Source: Lingula anatina
Taxonomy: Eukaryota > Animalia > Brachiopoda
Direction: 5' to 3'
Length of the DNA: 64,000 bases
NCBI GenBank assembly: GCA_051362555.1
Contig: CM120644.1
Location: 16,452,534-16,516,533 of the forward strand
Both the position numbers and the translations under genes were made by a program. This document shows positions 1 to 64,000 of this stretch, one piece after another (position 1 is the first letter of the stretch; every line of letters begins with the position of its first letter). The notes beneath the pieces were generated by a model. It saw only the letters and a list, made by a program, of their open reading frames with translations, had not been told where the DNA came from and did no database searches.

Positions 1-3000
1 ATCTCAGCCGCCGCCTTGGACGCCGAGTACGGGTTGGTCGGGGTAAGGGTGGCGGTCTCCTTGCGTGGAATTCCGTCTTTCACTTCGCCATACACCTGTG
101 AGAGGTCATTTTATTATGTATGACACCGATGATGTGACAAAAATTCAATGTTCTCTGACTACGTATGTTCAACGTTAAAACTGCATTACATGTCAAATTT
201 TGACTTGTCAACATCTTGACCAAAACTTTAACTAAGACGTTTAAGCAACCTTTTTTAGATTGAGATATAGTTCCAAATAAAACAACGGAGAGAAATGCCA
301 AAGGCCATCGTTTCATATTACCCGAAAATGATATTTGAACGGATTTTTCTACTTGCTTTCTGTGCTGACTAACGACCAAATATTTGAAGAAAGGGGCAGA
401 TTAAAGCTCTCTTTAGCTGATCGATTTTTGCATAATAAAAAAAGGGGCCATTTTAAATTTGAGTCTTTTACATCTGGACCAAATGTTTAACCAAATGCAA
501 TTTTTTACCAACTTGGATTTAAATCATAAAAGTTTTTTTAATATACTGGACGATTAAAAGAGTAAAAATTAAAAGACAAATTTAGGGTTTCCTGTTCGGA
601 AGTTTCGCTCAATAACATTTTTTGCATAAATTATAGGGCCTCGTGACTTTGGGGCATTGCCTTAAATTGATTAGTTCAAAATACCATTTCATTATAACAG
701 CATGTCTGTTAAGATTCAAAACCTTATTAAACCTGACGTCACATACCTCATCCGTGCTGACGTGAAGGAAGAGCTCCACGCCAAAATGTCTGGCGCAGTG
801 GAGCAACGTGTGAGTTCCAATGACGTTAGAATTGGTAAAGGCGTTGGAATTATTGAACGAGTTGTCAACCAGGGTCTCCGCTGCAAAATGCATCACTGTG
901 TCGATCTGGTAGGTCTCGAAAATCTCTTTCATCTTCTCGGCATCGGAGATATCGGCTGAAAAAAAAATACATTTATGGATGCGTGTGTAGATGGATTGAA
1001 GATGACGTCATAAGCAGCGACTTTCATAATGATCCTCACTTAAAAAATCTCTAAATAGCTACTTACGTCAAACACTTCTTAAAGAAACGTCAATATTTAT
1101 TTGTTGTTTTTTAAACGCATGTCATCTTTTATTTTGCCATCTTATTTAACACAAATATATACATAAAAATGATATCAAATGAGATAAAATTCCATACCTT
1201 TGATGAAAACAAAATTGGGTTTGTTCGCAGAGGGATCAAGGTTCTTCTCATTGGAGCAATACGTGATCTTATCCACAACAACCACGTGGTAAAAGCTGTA
1301 CCGCTCCACAAGGAAGTTAGCCACGTGCGACCCAATGAAGCCAGCGCCGCCTGTCAGCAGTATGTTTTTCCGGACGTTCTTCTTCATTCTGGTGAAGACG
1401 TCTTGGATGGAAACGCTAATGTGCGGGATTTGGCACTCGGGCAGGGCCGACTCCAGTTTGGTTGTATCAAGGCAGTTGTCTGACCGACCGGCCTTTATCA
1501 GGGTCTTGAGGACTTCCTTATTGACGAGCTGGTAGGTATGGTTAGGGTCAATGAGGCTTTTGTACAGCGCCAGGATTTCTGAGTGACTGATGACACCAGG
1601 GTTGACAAAGTTGTAGACACCTAAAATGATTTCGCAATTGCAAAACTGATGACACCCGGGCTGACAAAGTTGTAGATACTTAAATGGTTGCAAAATTGTT
1701 GGAATAAAGAACTTTCGTCTGTACGATTTGGATCTTATGAACTTATTATATGACACATGGAGCCTCCACCCACCCCCCCTCGCGTGATTTCGCCACTGCA
1801 ATCAAATAAGTTTCTCAAAAAATGTGAAGATCTAACGCGGCCATGATTACCAAGGATAACTTTAAGCTTATCTGTCCGTTTGGCCGATTCGAACATAAGT
1901 GACGTAAGCGCAAACAAACTATGAATCCCCAGTACTGAAATTAACATTAAAGGGATAATAACTGTTACTTTTCGTACGAGATCCGTATTTCACAATAAAT
2001 ACAACTCACAGAAATATTGTAAATTCTTTTTTACCACCAAAACAGCGGTTCTCACAATATTTGTGGAATCTGTGCTTGCCATCGGACCACGTGGCCTCCA
2101 TAGATGGCTACACTCTGTAATTATCTCTTAAGAAGACTATTACAAATAACCAAACCTTTTTAAAAAAACAAAACAGGAACTAACTTTTAATCACGGAACG
2201 GATTCATTTACAATTGGTTAATATGGGGAAATTGTCGTTTACCCCTGAAATATCCTTTATTATTATTTTTTTTTTTTTTTTGGCAAAATGAACAGTTTTT
2301 ATCTAGATGCTTTCTCTTTATAAAATACATAATATTATACGAAAGTGATGGAACCCTTTAGTTCACTGTATTCAGGATGGTTTTTACAAAAAAAAAAAAG
2401 TTTGAGTTTTGAAGCTGTACAACAGTATCTGTATATCAGAATAATTTTAAAGGACAAAGTTACCGTAGCTAGGTTCTAAATGATTTATTGCTGAATATAC
2501 AGATTCTAAACCTGAAGGAGACTATAGAATACCAGCATGTGTTTTACGGTAAGAAATGTATAAGAACAGACAAGACCATATAATGTGTGTAAAATGATAT
2601 TTCGTGCTGGAAGGTTTTATCTAGACAAGGTAGTCTTGGTAATCTGATTGCATTCAGCGAGAGTCCCTGTGGACGATGTGCGCATAAGCTAAGTCGACAG
2701 AATCGATTGTGAACGGACCCTTAGACCTTTTTACCTGTCAGTCCTTTCTCCATCATCACGAAAGTGAGCGGAAGTAGATCGTGAAGTACGCTCACTGCAT
2801 TCGGAACGTCGCAGATCTTCGGGTAATTGGTTATTTTCGTGATGAAGTTCCTCGGGTGGAGATCGTCGGAAATGGGCATGCGCACACGAAGGGTAAGGAC
2901 ATTGGAGTAAGAGTGTAGCAAACTGAAAAAAAAATTAAATTAAATTAATTAAGAATAATATAACAATGAGAATAATTACTATAATTATAATTATAATAAA

Positions 3001-4238
3001 CAAAATAAAGAACGGATGACCATTTCATTTCATCGCTGGGCTTCAGAAGATATAGGCCTACTCTAGTTACACCAAATTCTATTTCAGATAAGGAAACTTG
3101 TTGCCTTTAAAATTAACTAGAATAGAATTATTATCTTTATTAAAATGTTTTGTATGCCTGATGGCGTACTCGAAATTAGGTGGTCTTATATTAAAACAAT
3201 GGTGTCGCAAGGCGTTCTTTACGAAAGTAACGTCTCGTGATCAAACCGCCGTACACTAATCTGACTAATCTCTAATTTCTATGGAAAGAAATGCTTTGAG
3301 AGAAATCTCCATAAATAAATTTGTAGCTACATTTGCATAAATGAAACCGTTAAAAGAACGTTTTTGCGAAAGAAAAAAAAACAAAAAACAAACGATGTCT
3401 ACCTCTCTACCATTCCCTTTGTCTTTGAGTAAAACGACCCGGTAAAATTGGGAGCGTCTTCTTCAGTGAACCCCCTTCCACCGATGGGGTGGTTCTCATC
3501 GTATTCGTAAATGCACCCGGTGCCGAAGTAAGTCACGTGGATCCCCCTGGTGGCGCAAAGGTCAACTACCGTTAACAGACCGATGACGTTTGCTCGGATA
3601 GTCTCCTGCTGATTACTGTCGCACCAGTCAACGTTGGGGCGCCCGGTCAAGCCTGCATAAATGTTGAATGGTACACAAAGAGCGCGTTATATATTAATAC
3701 AGACTTCTGTGTAGCATTGTGTTAACTTCCATCGAAAATTTAATACTTTTCCTTTAATCATACAATATCCAAAGTTGCTATAATAATTACGATTTGAATG
3801 AGTGAATGTTATAGTCGTCTACTACAATGCAATCGATCGGCTAGTCACTTTATTACACGTTAACAGAGTACCTTGGCAAGAATTTTGAAATCTAGGATTA
3901 AAAAAAAGTTATTGTGTATTTTTACAAAATAAATCCCATTTCACAGTTCATCGAGCTACATGTACATATACCTTTCAGACAAAACTTCGTGTCAGTACCC
4001 CTACAAAAATATCCTACATAGGGTGTCTTTTAGGACTGCATGGGAATATTTTAGAATCCTACAGTACACTAAGGGGTTTTGGGGCAATTTCCTTTGGGAC
4101 GCATCATAGGACCCTATGGTTCATTTTCGTAAGGGAACCATTAGAAGGGAGGCTTCCTTATCATAGATCTTAAAGAATATATCCGATCTTGTGACACTTT
4201 TACTGTTTGACGTTTAGTAGAAATGTGATGAGGCACAA

Positions 4239-4289
<51 letters not shown>

Positions 4290-4474
4290 GGACCTGCTGC
4301 TATGATGACGTATTTGGGTTGAACGGCATCCAGTTCTCGTTCTACTTGTTCTCGCTCTTCCATCCGGGAGTCTGAACACGTGACCTCATAGGGCTTTTCC
4401 ACCATCAGTCTCAGCAACTGGCTGCCAATCCATCCAGTTTTTCCAAACAGGTGCACTTTCACCGTGGCCGGCAT
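1..4474 (-). CDS. Fused NDP-4-keto-6-deoxyglucose 3,5-epimerase/4-reductase (N-terminal) + NDP-glucose 4,6-dehydratase (C-terminal); predicted trifunctional UDP/dTDP-L-rhamnose synthase, 3' end outside window
   Basis: Phase-consistent GT-AG exons: 4474-4294, 3652-3403, 2922-2735, 1620-1198, 955-747, 95-<1. The N-half has GKTGWIG, AAGLTGRPNVDWC, TGCIYEY, FYSKTK (YxxxK), LRVRMPIS, RNFITKI, GVYNFVNPG and RSDNCLDTTKL, all NRS/ER/UER1 signatures. The C-half has NILLTGGAGFIGS, DKITYCSN, HFAAETLVDNSF, HVSTDEVYG and PTNPYSASKAAAE, the RmlB/TGDS/RHM dehydratase signatures. Confidence 0.93.
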
Positions 4475-4789
4475 ATCTAGCTTATTTTTCCAAGTGGTGG
4501 TTTTGCTTACTTATTACTCAATATTTTAGAAATGTCGACGAGACTGAAAATTGAGTAGAACAAGCGTCATTACTTAAAACACAACAAAACAAAATGCGCT
4601 TGGACCTAGGAAATCGTCCGCTGTTTGTGGTTGTGGTTTATAAGAGTTTGCAACATAAAGCTGGTACTAACTTCTTAGATATACCGCGGGTATAATCTAG
4701 ACGCTAGGGGCTCTAATCCACCGCTGGGAGATTCTAGGTACTATACTCGATTCCCGACTTTGGTTATGCCCGGAGAGAAGAGAAATGCT

Positions 4790-5378
4790 AGGCTGACACT
4801 TGCACGACTTTTGGCCCCGATATTGTCGTGGCAAGTCGTGCCATTTTGGGGCACGAAGTGGGAGGCTCCCGCACTGTTCCCTACTAGTTTACGCATAGTT
4901 CACGACGAGCTAACGAGTAGTTTACGAATGCGTGTCCACATTGACACGAACTGGCACGACAAGTTCCCGCATAGTTTGTGCATAGTTTACGCACTTCCCG
5001 CATTAGCACGACGAGTTTGCGCAATTTGGACGATGTCGTGCGGACTGGGGCACGCAATATACGTGAGCTGCTCGTGAACTATTCGTGGCATGTCGTAACA
5101 GTCGAGGCATGGCGCGCACTGCCACGCACTGGCACGCATCCTCTCGCATCGTCCCGACAAGTACACGACGAGTTCACTAACAGTTTGCGCATACGTCACG
5201 ACCCGGTCGCGAAATTTTGTCGTGACCAAAATTTTGAACATTTCAAAATTCTCGTCCCGACATGACACGCAGACACGACGGGTTTACGCACACTTCACGC
5301 CAGTTTACGACTAGTTTGCGCACTGGCACGACTCGAGTAGTGCCAATGCGTGCCACAGAATCGTGCAAGTGTCAGCCT
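4790..5378. mobile_element. Non-autonomous DNA transposon (MITE), ~590 bp
   Basis: 18-bp terminal inverted repeat AGGCTGACACTTGCACGA (4790) / TCGTGCAAGTGTCAGCCT (5361-5378). TGCT flanks both sides. The GC-richer interior is full of CACGA/TCGTG motifs and has no credible ORF. Confidence 0.75.
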
Positions 5379-5671
5379 TGCTTAACGCAACACCTCTGTT
5401 TAGTTACCAAAATCAAAAAGTCCCCTATTGTCAGGTCGTAGCCTGGTTTTATACCTAACTTGGCGTGACAGACTTATATCTTTATTGTTACTTCACTATA
5501 ATTAAAGCAGATAAGATAAGAGCAAGATTAACGTTAGATAAAAGATATAAACTTCTATTGAAACTTATTACGAGTCGCGCGCCCGAGCCCGCGACTCTGA
5601 TCGAATAAATTTTCATTTTTATTAATGTTAAATTTTACTGGTCTGAACATGCCTTCATTTTTCACAAAAAA

Positions 5672-5703
<32 letters not shown>

Positions 5704-8166
5704 AAAAATTATGAAATACAATTTTTTCGTTAATACATTGCTTAAAACACTCGTTAATACATTGCTTATACATAGTTAAGATAAAGTCCTTTAATGCTTT
5801 TGTTTTATTCTTGATGAAAATGTTAAAGCTTGGTTAAATTTGATTAGAATATTATCATGTACCTTGTATTATAGTAAACACTCTATCAATTACAGTGTAT
5901 AAATATGAGTCGGTGAAATAGGTTAAAATTCGGTAAAAAAGGGAGATCTGTGTAGTGAATCGTTAATTAGTACTGATAGTCTTCTAAAATTCCACACATG
6001 AAATATGCATATTTGTTTAAGTTTTAATTATTCAAATGTATATAGCCATGACATGTTGCATGGCAGTTTAAGATTTAACTTTAATGTATCTACAATTAAG
6101 TTAATGTATATAGGCATGGCATGTTGCATGCCAATTATGGCAGTTCATTTGAAATGTAAATTATGATAGAGTATTAAAGAAGCGACAGAGCCATGGGGAG
6201 GGGGCATAACCGGAGAGAGATATAGACTGAGAGAGTAAGAGACATAGTTATAGATACCACAGAGCTAGAGATCATGTAGCAGAAAACTATACCTGCCTGT
6301 CTCAGTTGTCTTACTGGTGAAAAAGAAATCAAAGAACGTGAATAAGCACAGACTGGCTGCTGGTTTCCTTGATGAAGGTCAAAAATAAAGTGAAAGGAAG
6401 CCCTGTCACTCACAGGCACATGTACAGAAGCGTTCTGATTCACAGAAATCTCAGAAAATGAATAAAGAAAACCAAGAACCTTCAATAGTTTTACTTAGAT
6501 AAATACTGATCAAAGGCACTGAGGTCAAACAAGTAAAAGAAAATCAATATTGAAAGTCAACTCTGCAGGAAAAGAAATACTGACAACCCATATATCTAAG
6601 ATGCTGACGGCATGGAACATATTCAGTAATGAATAAATTATAACCTAGTGTAAAGGCATGGTCTCTGTTACATATTCAGATATATACTCAAAAGCTTCAA
6701 GCTGGTGGAATATATTGACGTCTATGATCTGCACCTGTATATACAATTTTGAAAGTAGTGATAGTGTCTTGCAAAAAAGATGAAGACATGCAACCACCCG
6801 TATCATTCTTTCGCAGTTTCATCGCATGCTCAATACTAACTAGAGCCAATTAGACAATGAAGCCATTTTTGCTCATCGTTAACTCATATATGTTTTCTAC
6901 AACGTGTGTGTAGAATCCCAAAAAGCACCAGGATTTTTTACGAGTGCAAATTTTCTCATTGCCGTTTTATTTTTCAACTGTTTGAGTTTGAAATCTGAAA
7001 TTGGATAAACTTCATCGGTGGACACAGTAGACGTGCTTAAAAGGACAACAACTGTTCATTTTGGCCAAAGAAATTAATTTTCCTGGAGTAAACGACGATT
7101 TTCTCATACTTACCAATGTTTAATGAATCCATTTCAACATTGAAAGTTAGTCCATGTTCTTTTTTTCTAAAATTTTTGTAATTTTGTCTTTTTTCGCCTT
7201 AATTTTTGTGTCATTTTTCCAAGGTGGTTAGATATGGTGATTGGTCTTTTTATGCTAGTGGGGAGAGACAAGTCCAAATTCATCTACTAGCAGCCAAAGC
7301 ACGTGCTTAAGACACCGCGGCTAAGTGGACAACAAACTGTCAAGGGTTAATATATTTATAAAAGGGAAATTTCAGATGGAAATTGAGAACAAGATAGAAA
7401 AGTAGAATAGTTTATGAAAAGTTCATAGCAATTTTTTATGTTTAAGGGGATCAGTATATTCTCGAAGAGACCAATAGCCATCCCGACCCAGGGGAGAAGT
7501 CATAATTAGGTTAGACACAATTCACTCGCTCCCAAGAAATATTGGCCAAACGTTAATCGGAGTTGGTCTTTATCTTTATTTTATATGCCTGAATGGAAAA
7601 TACTTCGATATGAATCCAGATGTGTATCAATTATGCAGCACTTGCATCTACCACGATGTCATCTTTGCCCTTGGAATTTTTATCAGCCGAGAAATACTGA
7701 AATCGTAACATTTCACTGATATGGGTTTACCGAAAACAAGAAACTAAAAGGTGGAAATTTGTGCTAGCACTGGGCATTTTGACAGACTGTTACGAAAGTA
7801 TTCTTAATATTATTAGTATGGTTATCATTTTACATAGCATACTAGCTTCCTTCTCTACTGAATACGACGATAAGGCAAAAGAAAGAGGAAGCACACCACA
7901 GCTGTCATTCTCCTTCATCCTTAAAAACGGGGTTTAGATTTAAATCGTGTACACATTTAGGCGTTTTTTCATAATATTTACAATTCATAGTAAAAAATGG
8001 AATAGTTTAAATAACACTGGTAGCACATCGTCATTATCACTATGGACAAAAAAATTCACTTTATTCCCTTCAAGTCTTAACCTGGACCGTTCACGTTATT
8101 TTCAGCCTTGAAGTGAACACATTTTACTCAACCATGCTACTCTATATACTGGATCTGACATTCTTA

Positions 8167-13300: not shown

Positions 13301-13438
13301 AAACAATTATAGTCTGTAGTATATGGCTTTTAAAATAGGTAAAAGGTCACCATGTATGAATCTTCATGTCACAGGTGCCTTGCAAGAGAGAAGAAACAAA
13401 AAATCCTCGACCAACACACATTCCATCGGTCTACCACC

Positions 13439-15109
13439 ATGTCAATGACTGAGAGAGATATAGCCATCAACCTCATCTCGGCTGTTGAAGCCAATCGGGT
13501 CAGAAAGGTCGAGCAAATCTTGAGAAAAGGACCAAAGCGGTTGTGGTCGGCTTTGATTAGCAATTACAAGCCACACGCCATTGGGTCAGCAACTGTCCTT
13601 CACGTCGCCGCCCTTCAAGGGAACGTACGCATCGTTGAATTACTGCTGGAGGCAGGTGCCGACCCAAACGTACCAACACTTGAGGTGTTCCAAATCACAT
13701 CTCCAAGCCCCAAGTTCTGGTCCACCAAATCCACGCCGCTTCACCTGGCCGCCTCCGTCGGCCAGCATGAGACGGCGCGAGTACTCCTCAAGTTTCGGGC
13801 GAAAGTGGATACACAGGACAAGAACGGCAGAACCCCACTTCATCTGACATACATGAGCAAGGAGTCTGCTTGTGTGGCAGACGTCCTGTTGGAAAACCGC
13901 GCATGCGTGAACTCCATGGATGTCGACGGGAGAACCCCGCTCCATTATGCAGCCATGCACGTTGAGATCGAGACGGTGAAGCGTCTTCTCTCCGCTGGCG
14001 CCGACATTGATCTTCAGGATCACGACGGGTTGTCGCCCCTTCTCTGGGCCATTAAATACAGCGCGACGAGGGTTGCAACATATCTCTGTGCGTGTGAAGC
14101 AAACCTCCAACTTCAAGATGCCAAGGGCATGGCGCCACTGCACTGGGCAGCTCAGATAGGGCTACCAGAGTTGATCCATCTCTTTGTCGGCGTGTTCCGC
14201 GTGAACGTAGATCGGCAGGACGCTCTTGAACGCACGCCCTTGCACGTGGCGTGCCTCTATGGGGAGAGTGGAAGCGCCACGGCTCTCCTTGAATATGGCG
14301 CAGACGTCAACGCTTTGGCTCAGAACGGATATTCACCGCTGCACTACGCCGCTAAGAGTGGTGACTTAGAATCCTGCTCTCTGCTTCTCAAAATGGGTGC
14401 AAACGCGACGCAAAAGGACCGTTGGGAAAGGACGGCAGCAGATCTCGCAAGAACATCCGAGTTGCAAGATTTGCTTCAAACTGGAGAGGCAATGTCCCTG
14501 TTAGACAGGCAGGCTTTCCCCGCCAATGATTCCGACGGAGAATCCCTCATAGCTACTGGTCCTTGTGACAGCCGCCCGGGATCTAGCAAGAAATTGAGTT
14601 TAGCATCTACACGTCAGGAAAACCTTACTGACGACCAGAATCATGTTTCAGGCACAGACAGACCCAGCCATCGTCTGAGGTCCCACACCATAGAGCTACT
14701 AGAAAACATCACCGACGAGATGAAGGAAATTAAAGAGGCAGTCTCAGACATAAGGAGCTCCTCCAAGATTCCCCAAGTCTTCCACGAGAAACCATCGGAC
14801 TCATTGGAGGCTAAACTTTTTCTTCTTGTGTCGAAAAGGATCAATTGTGACTGGAAGGATTTGTTCCGATCACTCATGTCCAAATTCCATCAGTCGATGA
14901 TTGTTGAGTCGAAAATCGAAGAAATCGTGTACGCGAACGAGAAGGATCTCTCGGAACAGTGTTATATATCTCTCGTCAGATGGCGACAGAGTCGCGGGCT
15001 GCGCCTGCGCGTTGACGAGCTTATCGATGCGCTCAATGAGATCTTTAGACGGGATATAGCTGAGGAAGTGGAAAACTTTATTTCGGAGAGAGATATTTGC
15101 CAAACATGA
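13439..15109 (+). CDS. Ankyrin-repeat protein with C-terminal death domain (single coding exon)
   Basis: Repeated TPLH/SPLH/APLH ankyrin motifs (roughly 9-10 repeats), a Ser-rich linker, a short heptad segment, then a DD-like tail (FLLVSKRINCDWKDLFRSL...EQCYISLVRWRQ...LIDALNEIFRRDIAEEV). The CCACCATG at 13439 follows a likely splice acceptor at ~13374, so it is preferred over the ORF-track start at 13352. Confidence 0.88.
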   Translation: MSMTERDIAINLISAVEANRVRKVEQILRKGPKRLWSALISNYKPHAIGSATVLHVAALQGNVRIVELLLEAGADPNVPTLEVFQITSPSPKFWSTKSTPLHLAASVGQHETARVLLKFRAKVDTQDKNGRTPLHLTYMSKESACVADVLLENRACVNSMDVDGRTPLHYAAMHVEIETVKRLLSAGADIDLQDHDGLSPLLWAIKYSATRVATYLCACEANLQLQDAKGMAPLHWAAQIGLPELIHLFVGVFRVNVDRQDALERTPLHVACLYGESGSATALLEYGADVNALAQNGYSPLHYAAKSGDLESCSLLLKMGANATQKDRWERTAADLARTSELQDLLQTGEAMSLLDRQAFPANDSDGESLIATGPCDSRPGSSKKLSLASTRQENLTDDQNHVSGTDRPSHRLRSHTIELLENITDEMKEIKEAVSDIRSSSKIPQVFHEKPSDSLEAKLFLLVSKRINCDWKDLFRSLMSKFHQSMIVESKIEEIVYANEKDLSEQCYISLVRWRQSRGLRLRVDELIDALNEIFRRDIAEEVENFISERDICQT

Positions 15110-16070: not shown

Positions 16071-18219
16071 TATAAATATGCATACAATAATTTAAATGCA
16101 AATCACTGCAAATGTGTTTTCCTATTTGATCACAAATGATTATGACATAAAATATGTTATTGCATCAGATATAAACTTGTTTTTATGTAGATGACAAGAA
16201 TCGTTCTGTAATATTCTTGAAACAGTCAAAAGGGAATAAATATATCACACTGTACCGGTGAAAAATGTTTTGAGGTTAATGGGCGACTTCCTTTTTTCAT
16301 TGGGAATTTGTTTTTGGAGGGAGAGAGAGAGAGAGAGTGAGAGGGTGAAATGGTTTGATCTTACACTGCATTCATACCGCGTTCATACTGCAATTTTGTG
16401 TTGAGCACTGTCCTTGTTTGCTATCGCTCAATATATAGGCCTACCACGTGAATCATTTTTACAATCTCTGCGTGGGTCCAACATACCTTATCAGAGCCCC
16501 TTTAAACGTAAACTGGGTGCACTGATAAATTGATAAGTTAGAAACACGTTTCGCAATAAAACGTCACTGTCGTTGTTTAGACAGTTCTATGTCACACAAG
16601 TAGGCTAACTCATGCGCCTTACATCACTCCCTTATATTCCTCCCCAATTTCAGATAGTTATTTAGTAAAAGACAAAAATATGTCAAGGTATTCTGTTACA
16701 GACAAAACTATGCTAAATACATGCCTAGATGGGGTTTCTATATTAAACTGAAGAATCTGACCGTGATCAAGTGTCGTAATTAAGGCCGACATTGCGTTGT
16801 TATTTGATGACTTTTTAAAATTTTTGTATTGAATCATAATCTATTAATATCAAATTCAAATAGATCTGTCCACGTATTTATCTTTGAAAATTATTTTTAT
16901 TTTATTTTATTTTTTTTTTTTGGAAGGGGGCCGGAGGGGGGGGGGGGGAAATCCTGGATCCGCCCCTGCAGGTTTAAGAAAAGCGTAAGACGGGAATTAC
17001 CTGTGCAGAGCACAATACCACCCTGTTGTACGTGTAATTTTTTCACGTACACGTAGGCCTATATGTGCCAACACGCAATGTACGTGCATAGGCATGGCTA
17101 TGTAGAGAAATCGAATAACAATACCAATTTTGACTTACGGGATTACGGAATACGTGCAAGCACGAGTATAGGCTCTACTGGTACATTACAGGGCACAATT
17201 TACAAAAATACATTATAGATGGCAGCACACATCCCGCAATGCCTGCAATGCCTTGTATTGGTACAAAAGCTATTTAAAGCACCTTTTTTTAGGTCACGCT
17301 CCTGTAGGTCGCCGCCATATCGGTGTTATGCTTTGAATATCATACAGGTACATTGTACGTTGGTGGAATGTTGGTTTACACTGATGCAAAGGCTCTTTCA
17401 CACCTAGCGTAAAGAGGTACGTATGAGTTTCGTATGTGACATCCACTATATAAACAGCTTTTCAAGCGTATGAAATCACCAGGGCAGGCTACCCTGTTTA
17501 CAGCATACCCCTGTATATATAAGAATAAAAATAAAAGCAGCGTATGGGATTGTTTTGGAACATGCTCAAAACATTTAATCTCCCTCCGGGTATTCGAACG
17601 TTCACCGACGTTTGCCTGTGCACTCAAGACGTATAGGCCTACGACGTAAGGACTGCGAATGGGCACTTTGTCTCAAAGGAGAGCACACAGCACAGGTATA
17701 AAACATCTGCGCATGCGTGCAAAATTGACAGAGCCTGCCAGTGTTTACAGTCTAGTTCATTTGGTTTAATTTGCTTTCTTGTGTCGTTTGAAAAATTAAT
17801 GGTGAATTCTTTGTTGATTATACGTATTAAAAGCTAAATCCAACAGGCTTTGCTAAATTGACGCCTGCTTTGTATATAGGCCTATTTTATGTAAACTGAG
17901 CATAAATACAAATGTTGCCTTTCTGCGTCCCAAATGTGCCTACAGTATGAACAGGCACTGAGCTTATTATTTTTTTTAAATTTATGCCCTGGTTAGTGAG
18001 CATCGGGGAGGGGGGTCACTGGGCTAAATTTGGCACGTATAAGGTTGTTGCTTGGTAATATGTTAGGCCTGCCACCGTAGGATTTTAAAGCTTAATTGCC
18101 TCCCAGATTTTAAGTAGGCCTACGACGGGAAACTCAAGATTTTTACTTAGTTAAAATGGTTAAATTACAAAGAGGACTATTTTTTCAAATTTCAGCAAAC
18201 GTCAAACAGATAGGTGACA

Positions 18220-19662
18220 ATGGCGGCACAGACATCCCTTTCACTTTCTGACAAGGGCACGCTTCGCCCGCTTGGGCAGTTTGAGAACGCGTTCGCAACA
18301 ATGCATGGATGTAAGAACACAACAATAGCCTTCACCTCGTGGATGAACTCGAAAAATTTCCTCTCAGACGATGTTTGGAAAACTTCACTTCACCTGCTCC
18401 AGAAAAACATCCCACACCTTCGTATAAACATAGAATGGAAAGACGGCAAGAGGTACTTCAAGTACATAGACGATCCCCATGTGGATTTTGAGATCTTGGA
18501 TGTGACGTCAGACGATAACTGGAAGACTGTGCACGAGGATATGATGAGCGTGAGGTTTGATAAAGAGAATGCACCTCTTTGGAAGATAAAGATTTTGCGT
18601 ATGCCTAAGGTATGTGATGTCAACCACAAAGTGGAATCTACTCCAGATGCCTCGGGTGGTTTTGAAACAGTAGTAGTGTTTGGCATTGATCATGCTGTAT
18701 TCGATGGAATGTCAGATATACTGATGTTGAAGAAACTGCTTCAAATCCTTAACGCGGTCACAAAGAAAGAATCAATCGAAGATGACGAAGTCGTCACATT
18801 TCATCGGAACTTGGAGGCGTTGTTGCCCCAAGACAAGCTGGAATTCAAGTGGAGAGACTATTTCCAAGTAATAAAAGAACACATACACAGTTTATTTCCT
18901 TACCACAGTCAGTACTTGACGTGTTTTCCACCACCACCAAAATCAGACGAGGGACACACAAAAACGATTGCTTTCCATTTCACGATTTTAGAAACGGAAA
19001 GAATCATAGCAAAATGCAAGGAATGCGAGACAACTGTTCATGGCCTTTTGGTGGCTGCTGCATCCACGGCTCTAGCAAATGCCATAAACGAAGGAAAAGC
19101 GCCACGTAGAATAGATGTTCCGTCATCCCATATGGTTAATATGCGACGTTTCATGCCACCTGAGCTTCAAAATGCGTTCGGTCTTCTCATTGCTTCGGTT
19201 CACCTCACAGTGAGTGTTCCTGCTGCTGTCACCTATCGATCATTTTGGGAACTAGCCAAGAGTTCAAAACGGACACTTCACAATAGTTTGAATAACGGAG
19301 ATGCAATAGAAGGTTGTAAAATGTTCAACTACTTTGTCCCTGACGATAACAGCGTGAAACGATTGATGGCATCTGATATATGCAAATATGAATTTGGCAC
19401 TTCAAATATGGGGGACTGTGACAAGTTGTGTCCTCCTGAAAAAGCAGACGATAATGTTCATGCCGCGAGAATAGTTTCCTCCTCCGCGATGCAGAATTTG
19501 TCCAAACCGTTTTATCACTACCTGCGTAAATTCCGCGGTCGCTTCTGTTACAATCTTGACTACGGGACCAACAGGGTGTGCGAAGTGAACGCCATCAGAT
19601 ATGCCGAGATGACAGTGAAGCTGATGAAGATGGCGGCTGGCGACGAGAAAATGTGGACATAA
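18220..19662 (+). CDS. CoA-dependent acyltransferase of condensation-domain / alcohol O-acetyltransferase (AATase, PapA5-like) fold
   Basis: 480-aa ORF with N-terminal RPLGQFE, LLQKNIPHLR, APLWKIKIL, catalytic IDHAVFDGMS (HxxxDG), CKECETTVHGLLVAAAS, VNMRRF, FWELAK and TSNMG. A splice acceptor TTTCAG ends at 18195, just before the ATG at 18220. Confidence 0.85.
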   Translation: MAAQTSLSLSDKGTLRPLGQFENAFATMHGCKNTTIAFTSWMNSKNFLSDDVWKTSLHLLQKNIPHLRINIEWKDGKRYFKYIDDPHVDFEILDVTSDDNWKTVHEDMMSVRFDKENAPLWKIKILRMPKVCDVNHKVESTPDASGGFETVVVFGIDHAVFDGMSDILMLKKLLQILNAVTKKESIEDDEVVTFHRNLEALLPQDKLEFKWRDYFQVIKEHIHSLFPYHSQYLTCFPPPPKSDEGHTKTIAFHFTILETERIIAKCKECETTVHGLLVAAASTALANAINEGKAPRRIDVPSSHMVNMRRFMPPELQNAFGLLIASVHLTVSVPAAVTYRSFWELAKSSKRTLHNSLNNGDAIEGCKMFNYFVPDDNSVKRLMASDICKYEFGTSNMGDCDKLCPPEKADDNVHAARIVSSSAMQNLSKPFYHYLRKFRGRFCYNLDYGTNRVCEVNAIRYAEMTVKLMKMAAGDEKMWT

Positions 19663-36989: not shown

Positions 36990-38515
36990 TTACAGCAATT
37001 GTAAATTAAGTGTGTATTTTTCCGGTGCAATCTCACGTGATTTCTCTACTTCAGTCTGCCCAGTGGTAATAGCCCAGTCTAACCTATAGATTTGCCGAAT
37101 CGGATCCATTTCTTCTTCGTGTACTTCTCCGAACATTCTCCCCGTTGTCAAGCAATTGGTGCACGTCGATCTCTCCCTGCGCGGAAAGCTGATCTTTCTG
37201 TCATCCGTCAGCAAGCGAAGAATGTTATCAGCGTCGGTGTTCAACGTGTTCATGTATGCAGTGGCGTCGTAGTCTATGTAACAAGGGTGGCACTGCCTCG
37301 AGAAAGGAATCCAATGTTTATCCATGTGGTCGGGGTGTTCCCCGACGTACCGTATGAAATCTCGAAAAGTGACATTGGATCTGTGTCCCCTTTGCCATAA
37401 GTCATTCCCTGTCGCCGTTTTCTTTTTCAAATATTTATAGAGCTCTCCGTCGTCGCCGGGAACATCGGTCGGGTAAATTGGTGGCAGGTGTTTATAGTGC
37501 TCTCTCACGTAATTTCCGACTAGTGACAGTGCCCGTGGTTTATTGGGAGACCAGTACTCAATTTTACTCCTGTACGCCGATACCAGTTGTTCCGCAGGAT
37601 GCCGAGCGACGAAGAATTTGAAATAAGTTTTCAGTCGATGGTTAATCTCCTCTTGGGAGTACGTACTCAGAAGCCGCAGATGTTTAGGAAATTCTACGCT
37701 ATGTAAGCGGATTGATGCCGATTTTGATTTGACAAGCTTCACACCAAGGGCTGCTAGAATACTCTTTTTCCAGTTTGAGCTCGCCGCTTTCGGTCTTTCG
37801 CAATAGATCATTTTCAAGTCGTCGCTAACCCAGAGGTACCGTAACTCGTCCATAGATGGCGGGTTGTCGCGTGACCTTGCCCCTTGACCATATTTCTGAC
37901 ACGCCCACTTTGATCGTTGCCTTCTGAATGCCATCTGCTTTATCCATTCATCGGCAATGGGGTTAAGACGTTTAATAAGTGACTGTAAAATAAAAGCAGC
38001 AAATGATTTTATTTTAATGGCTGTTGGAATAAATGTACTGTCTGTGCTCGGAAGAGGTCAGAACTTAAGACATAATATATTATATATTATGTATTTACAT
38101 GTCTAATTACTTTGGGACTTCCTAGGGGTAAAAATCAGATTTTATACCATATAAGAGTAAAAATTAATAATTATACAATTTAACGTAAGCCATTTTCATA
38201 AAAAGTATGCTTGGCCACTGTATCAAAATGAATTCAGTTCCCACCTTTTTGTATTTTTGCAGTGACAGCCTGTCTGTTGATGCATCTGAAAATGTTTTAA
38301 CACCGTTGAATGTGGGAAGTTATAAAAGTGGAAGGGTTAGATAAACAAGACTTGTAAAATCTTTTTTCCCCTTAAATACCCTTTAAAATTCAATACAGTG
38401 TAGTTGGTATGGTGCCTGTAACATGAAACAGAAAAATACTTAAAAAACGACTTAAGGATTTTAAGGACTCCTCTCTGTCTTTCTCTCTATTTCTCTTACA
38501 CACACACACACTCAG

Positions 38516-43333: not shown

Positions 43334-43684
43334 TTTCGGGAAGATTAACCGAACACGGTAAATACCATTCAACAATAAAGCTAACACTATGTAGATCATT
43401 CTTATTTAGAATAGAAATACTAACACGCACTTAAGAATGAATTGGCCATAGGAAACGAATACTGTGGCGGCTTTATGTTCATGTTCGTTAGGCATAAAAG
43501 GTTAGGACTCACTGAAAAGAGGAATATTTAGGAAGTTAGAAAAAGTGTGCTTGCATGACAATTGAACACTGAGCCTCATAAAGCATTTTAGCATATAACA
43601 CGACACTGTCAACGTCACTCTGTGCGCAGTAGTCACGAGAGTAGTACCATACTGGTATCAACACTATAAAGCTAGATACAAATC

Positions 43685-45947
43685 ATGTATATTGCAACAG
43701 AAGCACCAGGGGGATACCTTTGCATTATATTATTTTTGTTGCTCTTTTGCAACGGTACTACGTGTAGTAGTGTTGATGGAGACAGTTTTGTAGAACAGTG
43801 TCCAAAGGAATGCCGCTGTTATAGCACGCCCCCATCCAACCACACAGTTGATTGCTCAGGGAGGTCCATCAGATCCATACCCCTGGGGATTCCACGTAAT
43901 ACAACAGTCTTAGACCTACGAAACATCGGTCTTTCTGAAATACCGCCATATACATTAAGTCATCTGGAGAATCTAAACACACTTTACCTTGGAGGAAATG
44001 ACATAACAGCGTTCAACGAGAACAGTTTTGCGGGTTTAAAGGCATTGGGATATTTGAATCTGTTTCCTATTCATCCAGGTATGAATATCGACTATAATGC
44101 CTTCCCTCCAACTTTGTTCCGTGAATTAACCTCGTTGAAAACCCTTCATATTGGTGGAATGGGTTCGGGTAAACATGTTCAACAAGATTACATAGATCGC
44201 ACAATAGCGCCATTACACAAGTTGGAGGAGTTGTTTTTATCTTATTTGCCTCATGGAAATGTATCATTTGGTCCTGGATATAGTAACCTATCGTCTCTGA
44301 AGACGCTGGTTTTCAAAATGCATTCAAGTGCTGTGACACAGTTGCAAAAAAATGCTTTCTTGTGGTTAAAAAACTGCTCAATCGAAAAACTTGCTTTTAT
44401 TGGCTATGACATTAACCGTGCAGAACCAGATATGTTATCTATTTTTCCACGTTTAAAAGAATTATATCTGGAGTGTAGTTCTTTTCTGTCGTCGCAGAAT
44501 GAAGAAGATTTTATTTGCGGCTTAGAGAACAACACATCAATTGAAACTATTCGCACAAAAAATGTTTTCCTAAGTTCTTCCTCACAATGGAGGATATCAG
44601 GGACAGCATTCAAATGCTTAGAAAATACGTCATTGAAAGCACTAGAATTGATTCACAACACCATAGAAGAATTTGACCTGTATAACTTGTATTATTTTCC
44701 GAATTTGGAGTATCTAGATCTGTCGAATAATCTTATTGTCTCTTTCCCATTAAATGGAAAGGAAATTTCTGGAAATTTCTTTGGCTATTTTATGCATTTT
44801 TCAGCACTGGTAGGGAACTTGAAGTACATGAGGATCGACAATAACTTGAGAAACAAAGATACGGCCTATAAACAATGTGACTTAACGCCTTCTTTATGGA
44901 AAGGCCACCCGTCATTCAAACTTAAAAAATACGTTCCAAGCTTGTTAAATGTAAAAGACGTGCCATCACCAATTTTTCGATTTTCTCTTCCTATTAATAT
45001 TGAATTCCTTTCGATTAGTTGGTGGCCAATTTTGGACAATAAACTTTCTGTTTCGTGCGTCTTTAAAGGGAACTTATATTTTTATCCAAATAATCTTCGC
45101 TTTTTTAGGATGGAAGGCATTGGTATCCGTTATATCCATTATGTGTTTTATGGATTGGACACTTTGGAGCATCTCGATGTTTCCCATAATATCCTCAACT
45201 GTCTTCCAAGAGATTTTTTCAATGGTCACTTTCCATCGTTGAGGTCCCTAAATCTTGGTGACAACAAACTAGGACCTTTAATAAGTGAGGGTGGGATACT
45301 TCCAGTAAAACTCCCAAGCTTAGAGTTTTTGGATTTATCACTGAATGAGATCAGGACCATCCCTAAGAACTTTTTTGAACACCTTGTCTCCCTTCAACGG
45401 CTGGTGCTGCACGGCAATTACCTGAATACGGTGTCGTTCAGTATGGTTAATTTCGTGTCTGTGGAATACATAGATCTGAGCAACAACAAACTACAGTCGT
45501 TTTCATCAGAAGAGATGGAAAATATTGAGAAACTAAATTCTAGCTTAAGTATTCATTTGAATATGACGAACAATCGTCTGGACTGCACCCTTTGCGATGG
45601 GGAGGAATTTCTTCAATGGCTTATTTTTGCAAATATGACAGTTACATTTTCCAACGACTCCGATTGCCCCATGAATGGTTCAAAAACAGGTCTGCGGAAT
45701 ACACTAAATGAACTTCGTGAGAAATGTGGTATTGGCTATCAGATAAAAAGTCCAAATCAGTGGCTGTCTCTCGGGATCTCCCTTTCTAGTATCCTTGGTG
45801 TGACATGCGGTTTAGTAGCAGCGTACATATATCGCTGGAATATCAAGTATGTGTTATATTCAGGGTTTATGTGGTTACGGATGTGATTATGACATCATAG
45901 TTGTGAATTATGTGTGTGTGTGTGTGTGTGGGTGTGTGTGTGTGTGC

Positions 45948-45997
<50 letters not shown>

Positions 45998-46696
45998 TGA
46001 GAGAAAAAGAATGAGAGAGACTGCAACATGTTAATAAAAATGTATATAAAATGCACCAAATATTATTGTACAAACTCTGTCATAAACACGTACAGGAGAA
46101 TAATCTTTAAATGTTTTTTTTTCTTCATGTGAAAAAAGCTCAGTTTAATTATCAAATGCGTCTTATATTTTAGATATCGACTATATCTACTTCGACGCCG
46201 GTTACGTAGACAAGGCTTCATTGCAACCCCGCCTGGTCACGTGTACATTTCATACGATGATGGTGATGACCAGTGGGTAGTGAATGAACTTTTACGTCAT
46301 TTAGAAGAGGAGAACGAGCTTGACGTCATTATAGATCAGAGGGATTTCATTGGTGGAGCATCTCTGGCTGAAGCTATCGTCGAAGCTGTGGATAACAGCA
46401 GGAAGACAGTTCTCGTTCTATCAGAAAACTCCGTGCTTAACTCGTGGTGTGAATTTGAGTTTGAAATGTCATTGGCTCGCGGCTACAATTCAGTGATACC
46501 AGTCATGTTTCAAACGGTTCCGTTTGATGCCATGACGAAATCACTTCGAAAATTCATCAAAGCAAGAGGCTATGTAAAATGGTCTGGCTCTCAAACTGGA
46601 CAGCGTATGTTTTGGAGACGTCTCATGGATGATATTCTTGACGTAAATAATCAACTTGTGCATGGTGGTGAAGGTGACGACACTGAAATGCTGTAA
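43685..46696 (+). CDS. Toll-like receptor A (single-cysteine-cluster/vertebrate-type architecture), ~894 aa
   Basis: Exons 43685-45846 and 46174-46696 (AA|GTATGT...TTTTAG|A restores RWNIKYRLYLLRRR). Signal peptide, LRR-NT CPKECRC, LRRs, LRR-CT (NRLDCTLCD...DCP...C), TM WLSLGISLSSILGVTCGLVAAYIY, and TIR (YISY, DQRDFIGG, SRKTVLVLS, SWCEFE, FWRRL). Confidence 0.95.
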
Positions 46697-47877: not shown

Positions 47878-48955
47878 TGGACAAAAGAAGTGTCACCCCT
47901 ACTGAGCCAATACTATGGGGGAGATAAATGACTGTGGAATGATATGCTCCTGGTATCATTTCCTTAACATCAAATTTCACAAAAAATCACAAAATGAGAG
48001 CAAAATATACATTCTACCAAAATATGCAGTTTCAAGTCCAAAATTAGTACTTAGTGGCATAGCCACGCGACCTAATGAAAGGTGCCACTCTACGAAGCAA
48101 GGTTTCATATAATTGTCTGATGCGTTCAGGGCTTACGCTGGCCCAAGCATGAAACACTGAATATAACAGAGTTTCTCTGCTGGTTAGACGGGCATTTGTA
48201 AAAAGTTTTGACATATCATGCCACACATTTTCTTTTATGTTCGCATCCGGACTCTGGGCAGGCCACATCACCCTGCGAATGTCCTGTTGGTCAAACCAAT
48301 CATCAACTGCTCTGGGCCTGTGACAAGGAGCATTGTCATCCTGGTGAACAAATGGATAATTCCTGTCACCAAACATGTTAGTAATAGATGAGAGCAAACC
48401 TGACCCCAAAACATCAATATGTTTCTAGTGATTCATGTTTCCATTAACCACTATCAATTTGCCCAAGCCATGGATGCTGATGCAGCCCCACACCATGATG
48501 AATAAGCTGTTCCAGGTTCGAAAATTCAGTGCATGTGGTTCAAATGCTTTACCAGCAGTTTGCCAGCATAGTACCCGTATGTCATCAGAGGTCAGACCAA
48601 AGCGACACTCATCAGAAAAAAATATATAGGACCAACTGTCATGAACTGTCCAGTTCCAAATCCTGTTGACCCTAGTTTACTCGACGTTGCCTGTTTTGTA
48701 ACGATATAAGAGGTTTCAGTCTTGCTACCCTGTTGTACACTCTCTGAGCATGTAACCGACGCCTAGCAATTTTCACAGACACATTCTTATGTGTGAAATT
48801 GTTCCACTGTGTTGTCAACTGACAAGCAGTGTCGAGCTTTGACAACCTGGACATCAAAATTAGTCACATTATAAGTAGACCAGGCATTATAAGTACCCAA
48901 GATCTGCCTACTTTTATCACTCTGAGTTAGGGGGTGACACTTCTTTTGTCCAGTG
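47875..48955 (-). mobile_element. Degenerate Tc1/mariner (DD34E Tc1-like) transposon inserted at a (TA)n tract
   Basis: TIR ACTGGACAAAAGAAGTGTCACCCC / GGGGTGACACTTCTTTTGTCCAGT. Minus-strand transposase pieces ARLKPLIS, FSDECRF, HQDDNAPCH, WPAQSPDANIKENVW and RGYATKY are broken by stops and frameshifts. Confidence 0.92.
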
Positions 48956-51275: not shown

Positions 51276-51614
51276 TTTCGGGAAGCTTAACCGAACACGG
51301 TAAATACGATTCAACAATAAATCTAACACTATGTTGATCATTCTTATTTAGAATAGTAATACTAACGCGTACTAAAGAATGAATTGGCTATATGACACGA
51401 ATGCTGTTTATGCTCGTTAGGCAAGGAAAGGTTAGGACTCATTGAAAAGAGGAATATTAAGGAAGTTAGAAAAAGTGTGCTTGCATGACAATTGAACACT
51501 GAGCCTCATAAGGCATTTTAGCATATAAGACGACACTGTCAACGTCACTCTGTGCGCAGTAGTCACGAGCGTAGTACCCTACTGGTACCAACACTATAAA
51601 GCTAGGTACAAATC

Positions 51615-53960: not shown

Positions 53961-53998
<38 letters not shown>

Positions 53999-54672
53999 TG
54001 TGGGTGGGTGGGTGTGGTGAGAGAAATAGAATGATAGAGACTGCAATATGTTAATAAAAATGTATGTAAAATGCGTCTAATCTCATTTTACAAACTCTAT
54101 CATATACACGTTAAGGAGAATAAACTTTAAATGGCGTTTTTTATGTGAAAAAAAAGCTGAATTTCATTATAAAATGCATCTTATATTTTAGATATCGACT
54201 ATATCTACTTCGACGCCGGTTACGTAGACAAGGATTTATTGCAACCCCGCCTGGTCACGTGTACATTTCATACGATGATGGTGATGATCAGTGGGTAGTG
54301 AATGAACTTTTACGTCATTTAGAAGTGGCGAAAGAGCTTGACGTCATTATAGATCAGAGGGATTTCATTGGTGGAGCATCTCTGGCTGAAGCTATCGTCG
54401 AAGCTGTGGATAACAGCAGGAAGACAGTTCTTGTTCTATCAGAAAATTTCGTGCTAAACCCTTGGTGTGAATTTGAGTTTGAAATGTCACTGGCTCGCGG
54501 TTACAATTCGGTGATACCAGTCATGTTTCAAACGGTCCCCTTTGATGTCATGACAAAATCGCTTCGGAAATTCATAAAGGCAAGAGGTTATATAAAATGG
54601 TCCGACAGTCAAGCAGGACAGCGTTTATTTTGGAAACGTCTCATGGATGCTATTCTCGCCGTCAATAATTAA
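51615..54672 (+). CDS. Toll-like receptor B, ~922 aa, with duplicated juxtamembrane segment
   Basis: Exons 51615-53902 and 54192-54672; paralog of TLR-A with the same intron position; LRR-TM-TIR reading frame intact. Confidence 0.92.
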
Positions 54673-56470: not shown

Positions 56471-56603
56471 ATAACTTGTATTTGATTTCTTTTATATGAA
56501 AATTCGATCTGTGAATTAAGGGGATTTTTGTGTGATATGCTTTATGCGCCATCTTAATTTTGAGGAGTAAATCTTACTTCCTCGTTCTACTTATTACACA
56601 ATC

Positions 56604-60719: not shown

Positions 60720-61070
60720 TTTCGGGAAGCTTAACCGAACACGGTAAATACCATTCAACAGTAAAGCTAACACTATGTAGATCATTCTTATTTAGAATAG
60801 AAATACTAACACGCACTTAAGAATGAGTTGGCCATATGAAACGAATACTGTGGCGGCTTTATGTTCATGTTCGTTAGGCATAAAAGGTTAGGACTCACTG
60901 AAAAGAGGAATATTTAGGAAGTTAGAAAAAGTGTGCTTGCATGACAATTGAACACTGAGCCTCATAAAGCATTTTAGCATATAACACGACACTGTCAACG
61001 TCACTCTGTGCGCAGTAGTCACGAGAGTAGTACCCTACTGGTATCAACACTATAAAGCTAGGTACAAATC

Positions 61071-63422: not shown

Positions 63423-63460
<38 letters not shown>

Positions 63461-64000
63461 TGTGGGTGGGTGGGTGTGGTGAGAGAAATAGAATGATAGA
63501 GACTGCAATATGTTAATAAAAATGTATGTAAAATGCGCCTAATCTCATTTTACAAACTCTATCATATACACGTTAAGGAGAATAAACTTTAAATGGCGTT
63601 TTTTATGTGAAAAAAAAAGCTGAATTTCATTATAAAATGCATCTTATATTTTAGATATCGACTATATCTACTTCGACGCCGGTTACGTAGACAAGGATTT
63701 ATTGCAACCCCGCCTGGTCACGTGTACATTTCATACGATGATGGTGATGATCAGTGGGTAGTGAATGAACTTTTACGTCATTTAGAAGTGGCGAAAGAGC
63801 TTGACGTCATTATAGATCAGAGGGATTTCATTGGTGGAGCATCTCTGGCTGAAGCTATCGTCGAAGCTGTGGATAACAGCAGGAAGACAGTTCTTGTTCT
63901 ATCAGAAAATTTCGTGCTAAACCCTTGGTGTGAATTTGAGTTTGAAATGTCACTGGCTCGCGGTTACAATTCGGTGATACCAGTCATGTTTCAAACGGTC
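61071..64000 (+). CDS. Toll-like receptor C (A/B chimera), 3' end outside window
   Basis: Exons 61071-63364 and 63655->64000; LRR-TM-TIR. Largely A-like up to ~61560, and from ~61596 onward essentially identical to TLR-B, including the intron. Confidence 0.92.

Follow-up and report, generated by a model that had tools for sequence, protein, structure and literature searches.

The window, a 64,000-nucleotide stretch of Lingula anatina DNA, carries at its left end an intron-containing gene for a 607-residue protein in which an NRS/ER-type epimerase-reductase (ER) domain is fused in front of an NDP-glucose 4,6-dehydratase domain. We consider it probable (about 0.65) that this is a host gene whose product makes NDP-L-rhamnose from NDP-glucose on one chain, with the last-acting domain placed first. 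One-chain synthesis is likely because no known catalytic residue has been lost, the epimerase pair Cys107 and Lys173 included. Both domains are complete, and the single-polypeptide pathway proposed in a first-pass annotation of this DNA remains likely; we infer the activity, substrate and use of the product from the sequence. A literature search turned up neither a description of this gene nor a brachiopod in which rhamnose is reported.

Splicing of six minus-strand exons (Table 1) gave 448 codons with 0 stops, the last exon being open at the window edge. All five introns have GT..AG borders, and those in the dehydratase half lie after codon 347 (phase 1) and after codon 417 (phase 0). The spliced product equals residues 1-448 of the public protein P0121 (607 aa), from which, together with P0001, residues 449-607 beyond the window, including Ser483 and Tyr497, were taken. 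The single spliced frame joining the two domains, as annotated earlier, was thus recovered, with both Rossmann GxxGxxG motifs, both YxxxK motifs and the dehydratase TDE found as described. A disabled 3' end was looked for; P0121 ends normally and the 3' end is intact. The domain junction lies within exon 4, with a linker of about 3 residues. The other public model for the locus, P0001 (426 aa), omits exons 1-3; it is probably either a mispredicted model or a minor isoform without most of the ER domain. Upstream of exon 1 the sequence suggests a non-coding exon.

Table 1. Features of the rhamnose-synthase gene (window coordinates).
Feature	Position	Strand	Content and evidence
Coding exon 1, residues 1-60	4294..4474	-	ER Rossmann motif GKTGWIG (11-17), Arg37; RNA depth ~4 per direction in X7/X8
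Coding exon 2, residues 61-143	3403..3652	-	GRPNVDW, epimerase Cys107, reductase Tyr135-Lys139; aligns to 4QQR and 7JID
Coding exon 3, residues 144-206	2735..2922	-	Epimerase Lys173, Ala186; RNA joint to exon 4
Coding exon 4, residues 207-347	1198..1620	-	ER end, linker 289-291, dehydratase Rossmann GGAGFIG (297-303), Asp323; RNA reads through
Coding exon 5, residues 348-417	747..955	-	HFAAETLVD with Leu376; catalytic Thr415-Asp416-Glu417; RNA joints on both sides
Coding exon 6, residues 418-448, continues beyond window	1..95	-	Catalytic Tyr440-Lys444
Likely 5' untranslated part of exon 1	4475..4543	-	Acceptor-like TTTTCAG ends at 4544; RNA depth 0.5-0.7 in 4510-4676 bin
Degenerate 54-bp copy (84%) of the start of exon 4, in intron 3 just upstream of the true acceptor	1645..1698	-	Sequence comparison; RNA depth zero in overlapping 1671-1837 bin
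First exon of P0001, joined directly to exon 4	7843..7918	-	Public model

Transcription was followed in four runs of poly(A) RNA (X1, X4, X7 and X8), chosen by species label. All exons were covered in two of them, X7 and X8. Introns 3, 4 and 5 were joined by 9, 6 and 5 reads in X7 and by 4, 4 and 3 reads in X8, and the fusion point was spanned by 10-12 and 4-6 reads, respectively. The RNA-seq check thus confirmed the splicing of introns 3-5, and the claim that the two domains meet inside one exon, almost without a linker, was borne out by reads crossing the junction. For introns 1 and 2, in which repeats were skipped in read mapping, no RNA joints are listed, so support for these introns comes from splice signals, the coverage of the exons and P0121. 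In X4 the exons had no coverage; those X1 reads that lie in exons agree with the paralog described below, matching the start of its exon 5 when compared by eye. Among the 40 best-supported of 159 variant rows, from reads at least 90% alike, 19 variant codons in X7/X8 were silent and 5 were replacements (19/24 silent against 23-28% expected; p ~1e-8 to 3e-7), so the coding sequence is under constraint. The RNA reads diverge from the window sequence by several percent; their source may be a different population or a sister species.

Among solved structures, the best sequence matches were Arabidopsis NRS/ER (4QQR; residues 8-284, E 1e-91), mimivirus R141 (6VLO; 290-600, E 5e-83) and mimivirus L780 (7JID; 6-286). 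A Foldseek search with an AlphaFold model (pLDDT 94.4, pTM 0.81) returned the same families, with TM scores by target of 0.91 (4QQR) and 0.93 (7JID). The model has helix 274-288 followed by strand 292-296 at the junction. A first model was poor in the dehydratase half (pLDDT 61) because the alignment there had only 2 rows. The NRS/ER catalytic set is complete (Cys107, Lys173, Tyr135 and Lys139), and Arg37, which presumably has an NADPH role, is kept as in 474 of 529 homologous ER domains. Allowing for a 3-residue tag offset, Cys107/Lys173 align with Cys108/Lys175 of L780, which are named as catalytic and mutation-tested in PMC9614988. The dehydratase half has GxxGxxG, the [ST]DE dyad and YxxxK, and scored 381.4 against TIGR01181 (cut-off 365.1); [ST]DE..YxxxK is given as the signature of dTDP/UDP-glucose 4,6-dehydratases in PMC8987622. 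A domain search found no cupin domain, and the enzyme is predicted to be cytosolic because no signal peptide was predicted in the 607 residues.

In the proposed mechanism the C-terminal domain (290-607), with tightly bound NAD+, would use Thr415/Tyr440/Lys444 and Asp416/Glu417 to form NDP-4-keto-6-deoxyglucose. The N-terminal domain (1-288) would then invert C3 and C5 by means of Cys107/Lys173 and reduce C4 with NADPH through Tyr135/Lys139. The product would feed putative rhamnosyltransferases.

The gene has a paralog, the Lingula anatina RefSeq protein P0399, which lies on separate Lingula scaffolds. It is 84% identical to P0121, nearly equally in the two halves (83.7% and 84.3%), and has all the catalytic residues. 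Neither this second copy nor the altered dehydratase pocket was part of the first-pass annotation. The rebuilt pocket, which is a new observation here, consists of Leu376, Tyr497 and Ser/Val483 and is present in both copies. Leu376 replaces the near-invariant His of the AA[QE][ST]HVD loop, which we take to be substrate-binding; this His occurs in 355 of 382 aligned dehydratase domains, and Leu in three, all from Lingula. RNA variants at this codon were silent. Position 483, Lys or Arg in 337 of the 382 domains, has lost that residue. Tyr497 occupies the position of TvUGD His214 and R141 Gln206, so that the His or Gln of UDP-preferring UGD is absent; Tyr occurs there in 14 of 382 domains. In the ER domain, Ala186 stands where 525 of 529 homologous domains carry Ser. 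These four rare substitutions are common to paralogs only 84% alike and are therefore old and kept. PMC9741107 links His or Gln at the Tyr497 position with a preference for UDP, and Tyr with dTDP enzymes; this rule is put forward there as a modelling proposal around TvUGD His214. The rebuilt pocket suggests a dTDP-leaning or relaxed nucleotide preference compared with the usual UDP. The Leu376 and position-483 changes count against the main reading, as does the omission of most of the ER domain from P0001.

An active enzyme making another nucleotide 6-deoxysugar, with the pocket and Ala186 selecting a different nucleotide or sugar or allowing a single epimerization, seems unlikely to us. The age of the four substitutions and the dTDP association of Tyr497 speak for it, and the related viral enzyme Mg535 is described as having C3 epimerase activity only (PMC9614988). 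Against this, both epimerase residues are present and the TDE dyad is of the glucose 4,6-dehydratase type. Moreover, Tyr occupies the 497 position in 11 other fetched domains, two of them in plant-order fusions, the His/Tyr rule is modelled, and R141 reportedly uses both nucleotides.

It is improbable that one half is weak or acts apart, either supplying NDP-4-keto-6-deoxyglucose for another use, as TGDS would, or serving as a scaffold like nematode RML-5. The loss of the conserved His376 and Lys483 would fit such a role, P0001 would encode a nearly dehydratase-only product, and a forced grouping of the dehydratase with animal TGDS was not rejected (p-AU 0.52). Precedents are described for both variants: human TGDS supplies NDP-4-keto-6-deoxyglucose and rescues UXS1 (PMC12488480), and RML-5 is presented as a scaffold (PMC9741107). 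Unlike RML-5, however, the Lingula protein has intact catalytic residues in both halves; in addition, the halves have diverged equally between the paralogs and RNA joins exon 3 to exon 4.

Contamination or mis-assembly, with the gene coming from a protist or fungus associated with the animal, is very improbable: the nearest named full-length relatives are chytrids (48-50%), coding GC3 is 0.65 against 0.39-0.58 in five neighbouring ORFs and blastn found no repeat common to 1-6000 and the rest of the window, but the paralog sits on separate Lingula scaffolds, both genes occur in poly(A) RNA of runs with the same species label, many reads matching the intron stretches ~2000-2130 and 2636-2674 continue into other sequence in each of the four runs, as expected of host repeats, and the window continues without N into Toll-like receptor genes. 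The neighbours are animal genes (LRR/TIR Toll-like receptors, an ankyrin-death protein and a sulfotransferase), and we agree with the earlier assignment to the host.

The ER-then-dehydratase order is not unique to Lingula, since 106 other proteins among 518 fetched have it, including chytrid fungi and giant-virus-type proteins; the earlier implication that it is peculiar to this animal does not stand. The accompanying statement that fungi and mimivirus keep the halves separate holds for the characterized ascomycete and mimivirus enzymes and fails for chytrids (Blyttiomyces and Borealophlyctis, with a partial case in Rhizophlyctis) and for many Nucleocytoviricota-type proteins.

Trees were computed with FastTree for 171 ER and 169 dehydratase domains, obtained from 529 and 382 by identity clustering, and with IQ-TREE on hand-picked subsets of 50, 30, 41 and 34 rows. 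The nearest neighbour of the Lingula protein varied from tree to tree, and no supported sister was found in the ER, dehydratase or two-domain trees. In the two-domain tree, the chytrid fusion clade (100% support) and the giant-virus clade (99%) both exclude Lingula; joint clades were not rejected (p-AU 0.27-0.37 and 0.08 and 0.14, respectively), and none of seven AU tests rejected a clade (AU p 0.08-0.58). The earlier proposal of an independent fusion, possibly after horizontal acquisition, was neither supported nor rejected by these tests. The Lingula dehydratase did not group with TGDS in free trees, the set containing two named animal TGDS. Transfer of a ready-made fused gene, with a microbial eukaryote or a giant virus as donor, is a tentative explanation at somewhat below even odds; fusion of a foreign ER with a copy of the host's TGDS is doubtful, and old opisthokont inheritance with wide loss is rather unlikely. 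Chlamydiae and Dependentiae/Babeliales have close ER genes, up to 61% among the best 78 loci of 325 matches, and bacteria may have supplied the ER alone. A bacterial ER-then-dehydratase operon as donor of the fusion was rejected: in these best 78 loci an SDR gene directly follows the ER in only 4 (26-34% identity), and a dehydratase-like gene precedes it in 14 (35-42%).

In animals, rhamnose is regarded as a non-self sugar. Both halves are well-known enzymes, the RefSeq paralog is already automatically named 'trifunctional', and the reversed order is common outside animals. A 2023 preprint (PMC10473587) states that metazoan rhamnose synthesis is described only in nematodes; given an expressed, constrained and duplicated brachiopod synthase, a single recombinant protein would suffice to test this. 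The gene also has a bearing on the role of TGDS-like dehydratases in the ancestors of animals, and may bear on rhamnose-binding lectins and the distinction of self from microbe in invertebrates. The pocket bears on nucleotide choice in these dehydratases because its Tyr/Leu combination offers a natural way to test the His214 proposal, and a compact 607-aa single-chain synthase is a possible handy route to NDP-rhamnose. The fullest reading is speculative: lingulids would make NDP-rhamnose with a one-chain synthase in ER-dehydratase order whose intron-bearing gene was acquired by horizontal transfer and duplicated, and whose pocket was re-tuned towards dTDP. If true, no animal before would have had a plant/fungal-type rhamnose pathway described, and the enzyme would be the first to be characterized from a widespread but undescribed reversed architecture. 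Together with rotifer-linked RmlC-ER-dehydratase proteins, it would imply several gains of rhamnose synthesis in animals, by different routes; that family had no member in the 1/64 of the metagenome set searched, and the Atlas gives no taxon for it.

Among known systems, plant RHM1-3/MUM4 has the same two domains on one chain, with ~50-54% identity in the best-aligned domain, the same catalytic motifs and the same overall reaction as predicted here. In plant RHM the dehydratase comes first, whereas the Lingula protein has the ER first with almost no linker, has Leu376, Ser483 and Tyr497 in place of His, Lys and His, and falls outside the plant/green-algal clade in all trees; judged by sequence, it likely works like RHM without being a member. 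Arabidopsis NRS/ER (UER1) and mimivirus L780 (UGER) align over their length with residues 1-288 and have the Cys/Lys epimerase pair and YxxxK in common with it, but stand alone and carry Ser at 186, where the Lingula ER has Ala and a C-terminal dehydratase. The chytrid fusions (Blyttiomyces helicus 'RHM1/ROL1', Borealophlyctis and Rhizophlyctis) have the same order and 48-52% identity over the whole length, with 30-36 residues between domain hits against 3 in Lingula and a His-type pocket. Giant-virus (Nucleocytoviricota) fusions match in order and size (the top Atlas clusters are 596-635 aa long and 83-100% viral, and a giant-virus MAG contig carries one fused copy, L098), but their ER identity is mostly 35-42%, and the Lingula gene has introns. 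Animal TGDS, described as a UDP-glucose 4,6-dehydratase catalyzing the same first reaction (PMC13080230, PMC12488480), is a homologous dehydratase (45-49% to eel and Styela proteins) with a single domain and no ER partner. The dTDP-rhamnose pathway of nematode RML-1 to RML-5, the one animal pathway described in the preprint PMC10473587, may have a dTDP leaning in common with the Lingula enzyme, but uses a separate bacterial-type cupin epimerase (RML-3) and reductase (RML-4), whereas the Lingula protein unites its predicted activities in one chain that has no cupin domain.

Script splicing of the six coding exons of the minus-strand gene, which runs off the left end of the window, gave 448 stop-free codons. 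All five introns (242-1114 bp) have GT..AG borders, and GC content is 49-61% in the exons versus 28-36% in the introns. The product matches residues 1-448 of P0121, the public 607-aa protein of this gene in NCBI, UniRef and EukProt, at 100%. The single frame uniting an epimerase/reductase (NRS/ER) half with a dehydratase half, proposed in the first-pass annotation, was thus recovered. Since P0121 is complete and identical over this range, the 3' part beyond the window is, judged from sequence, intact, and the disabled 3' end that the annotation had considered can be set aside at the full 607 aa. P0001, an alternative public 426-aa model without exons 1-3, is taken for a putative prediction artefact because exon 3 is spliced to exon 4 in the RNA reads. 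The scaffolds that carry P0121 and P0001 are not the same, and the two may represent haplotype copies.

Features of the window with their positions
Feature	Position	Strand	Remark
Coding exons 1-6	4474-4294, 3652-3403, 2922-2735, 1620-1198, 955-747, 95-1 (open)	-	script splicing
Decayed 54-bp duplicate of exon 4 start	1645-1698	-	directly upstream of true acceptor
P0001 first exon	7918-7843	-	public model
GC-rich low-complexity stretch	4787-5381		21-bp inverted repeat at 4787-4807 and 5361-5381
Ankyrin-repeat + death-domain ORF	13343-15106	+	single-exon
Alcohol-acetyltransferase/condensation-domain ORF	18214-19662	+	single-exon, 482 aa; PF07247, PF00668
Sulfotransfer_2 carbohydrate sulfotransferase ORF	36993-38057	-	
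Toll-like receptor tandem array	43676-46693, 51606-54669, 61062-64000	+	at least 3 near-identical genes
Tc1/mariner-like transposase fragment	48047-48424	-	amid Toll-like receptor copies; by eye
Coiled-coil ORF	56571-57383	+	amid Toll-like receptor copies

Among named relatives the closest is P0399 (XP_013421209.1), a 607-aa Lingula anatina protein with 84% identity in each half, named 'trifunctional UDP-glucose 4,6-dehydratase/...' in RefSeq; therefore a Lingula host with at least two paralogs is likely. P0296, a fragment of P0399 (99.5% identity), is on a separate scaffold. Elsewhere in the window are an ankyrin-death gene, a sulfotransferase and Toll-like receptor genes. In each arrayed receptor gene a single long exon encodes the LRRs and another exon the TIR domain. 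The alcohol-acetyltransferase/condensation-domain family is better known from fungi and bacteria. The low-complexity stretch upstream of the gene, with RNA reads from both strands, is probably a non-autonomous transposon.

Four poly(A) RNA runs (X1, X4, X7, X8) were mapped. X7 and X8 covered all six exons and crossed the fusion point without a break. Splice joints of introns 3, 4 and 5 were found in 9, 6 and 5 reads in X7 and in 4, 4 and 3 in X8, which bears out the predicted splicing there; none are listed for introns 1 and 2, where repeats were skipped in read mapping. First mates of X8 fell mostly on the plus strand, as fits minus-strand RNA. Exon cover was absent in X4 and patchy in X1, where the variant set was unlike that of X7 and X8 and a 20-letter insert corresponded, by eye, to the beginning of the paralog's exon 5. 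In the 40 of 159 variant rows used for the count, X7/X8 exon variants hit 24 codons, 19 of them silent and 5 replacement (expected silent, 23-28%). The gene is real, expressed, constrained and animal. Within positions 1-4500, reads of the studied gene came from X7 and X8 and those of the paralog from X1, and X4 had neither, a split that possibly reflects tissue- or stage-specific expression.

Residues 8-284 align with Arabidopsis NRS/ER (4QQR) and mimivirus L780 (7JID), and residues 290-600 with mimivirus R141 (6VLO) and bacterial RmlB. Allowing for a 3-residue tag offset, Cys107 and Lys173 correspond to L780 Cys108 and Lys175, which a review describes as catalytic, backed by mutagenesis (PMC9614988). 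The dehydratase half passes the TIGR01181 profile and carries TDE..YxxxK, the dehydratase signature according to PMC8987622. An AlphaFold model (58-row alignment; pLDDT 94.4, pTM 0.81) was confident along the whole chain, with a three-residue linker from the final helix of the ER to the opening strand of the dehydratase; among the structure matches listed, no solved chain spans more than half of the protein. The marker motifs flanking the junction are 41 residues apart; of 88 such distances (median 59), only one is shorter. From residues and family membership, the C-terminal half would likely convert NDP-glucose to NDP-4-keto-6-deoxyglucose, and the N-terminal half would next perform 3,5-epimerisation and NADPH reduction. 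We put the probability that the product is a one-chain NDP-rhamnose synthase at about 0.65.

The pocket is altered. Both paralogs have Leu376, where 355 of 382 aligned dehydratase domains have His and three rows, all from the Lingula host, have Leu. Position 483 is Ser or Val in the two paralogs (Lys/Arg in 337/382), and both carry Ala186 (Ser in 525 of 529 ER domains) and Tyr497 (Tyr in 14/382, His in 274, Gln in 85). These changes could mean a different product or a weak dehydratase. Tyr497 aligns with R141 Gln206, and modelling led to the proposal that His/Gln here gives UDP preference and Tyr marks dTDP enzymes (PMC9741107; 'Lingula' is absent from its text and its one text supplement). 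On this basis the enzyme is predicted to be dTDP-leaning or relaxed in nucleotide choice.

The first-pass annotation implied that the domain order was a peculiarity of the host, which is not borne out: 108 of 518 fetched proteins, a set skewed by the choice of queries, have ER before dehydratase (two Lingula and 106 others), and 164 have the plant order. The order is not rare. It occurs in the chytrids Blyttiomyces and Borealophlyctis (48-50% identity over full length), in one 'viral metagenome' protein and once on a giant-virus MAG contig (L098:2501-4318); the best three Atlas protein clusters (596-635 aa) are 83-100% viral, with Nucleocytoviricota commonest. Fusions from chytrids and giant-virus-type contigs include P0145, P0019, P0014, P0144 and P0247. 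Doubled-ER proteins (dehydratase-ER-ER, ~1000 aa) were also seen in Cymbomonas, Pyramimonas and unnamed records (P0002-P0007, P0138, P0140-P0143). No other named animal ER was among the matches listed (120, 120, 150 and 120), most of which lack a species name. The surprise is the host and the pocket rather than the domain order.

In all trees the two Lingula paralogs formed a long-stemmed pair without a supported sister. The two-domain tree placed them outside the chytrid clade (support 100) and outside an 11-row clade (support 99) that centres on the viral-metagenome record and consists mostly of unnamed proteins. In seven AU tests no alternative was rejected. For the dehydratase, p was 0.52 with animal TGDS and 0.44 with virus-type sequences; for the ER, 0.58 with RmlC-ER-dehydratase proteins, 0.37 with chytrid and 0.079 with virus-type; for both domains, 0.27 with chytrid and 0.14 with virus-type. 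The independent fusion proposed in the first-pass annotation would be one of three candidate histories: a foreign ER joined to an animal TGDS copy, transfer of a ready fusion, or old opisthokont inheritance with loss. A bacterial operon as donor of the fusion was examined in the best 78 loci of 325 matches and rejected. Eukaryote-like NRS/ER with 44-61% identity to the ER half occur in the protist-infecting Chlamydiae and Dependentiae/Babeliales (L018-L068), and in several of them a hydrophobic, signal-like stretch extends the N-terminus (P0407, P0415, P0427).

A three-domain RmlC(cupin)-ER-dehydratase family (~800 aa; unnamed metagenome/transcriptome records P0015, P0033, P0022, P0028, P0130, P0334) shares 56-59% dehydratase identity with Brachionus calyciflorus P0325 (RmlC-dehydratase), and they cluster at 99-100% support in dehydratase trees. 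P0325, from a contig of 2.6 kb, has no ER. It is possible that the family provides a second rhamnose route in animals (rotifers), also ER-first.

No literature on this gene or the reversed order was found, with subscription journals mostly outside coverage, and the cited literature has no name for the architecture. According to a preprint, nematodes are the only metazoans for which rhamnose production has been described (PMC10473587); vertebrate TGDS is treated in PMC13080230 and PMC12488480. The available part of an algal survey names RHM, NRS/ER, RmlCD and RmlC-NRS/ER, and the ER-first trifunctional form is not among these (PMC6556577). The gene product is predicted to work as plant RHM does, but it is not a member of plant RHM.
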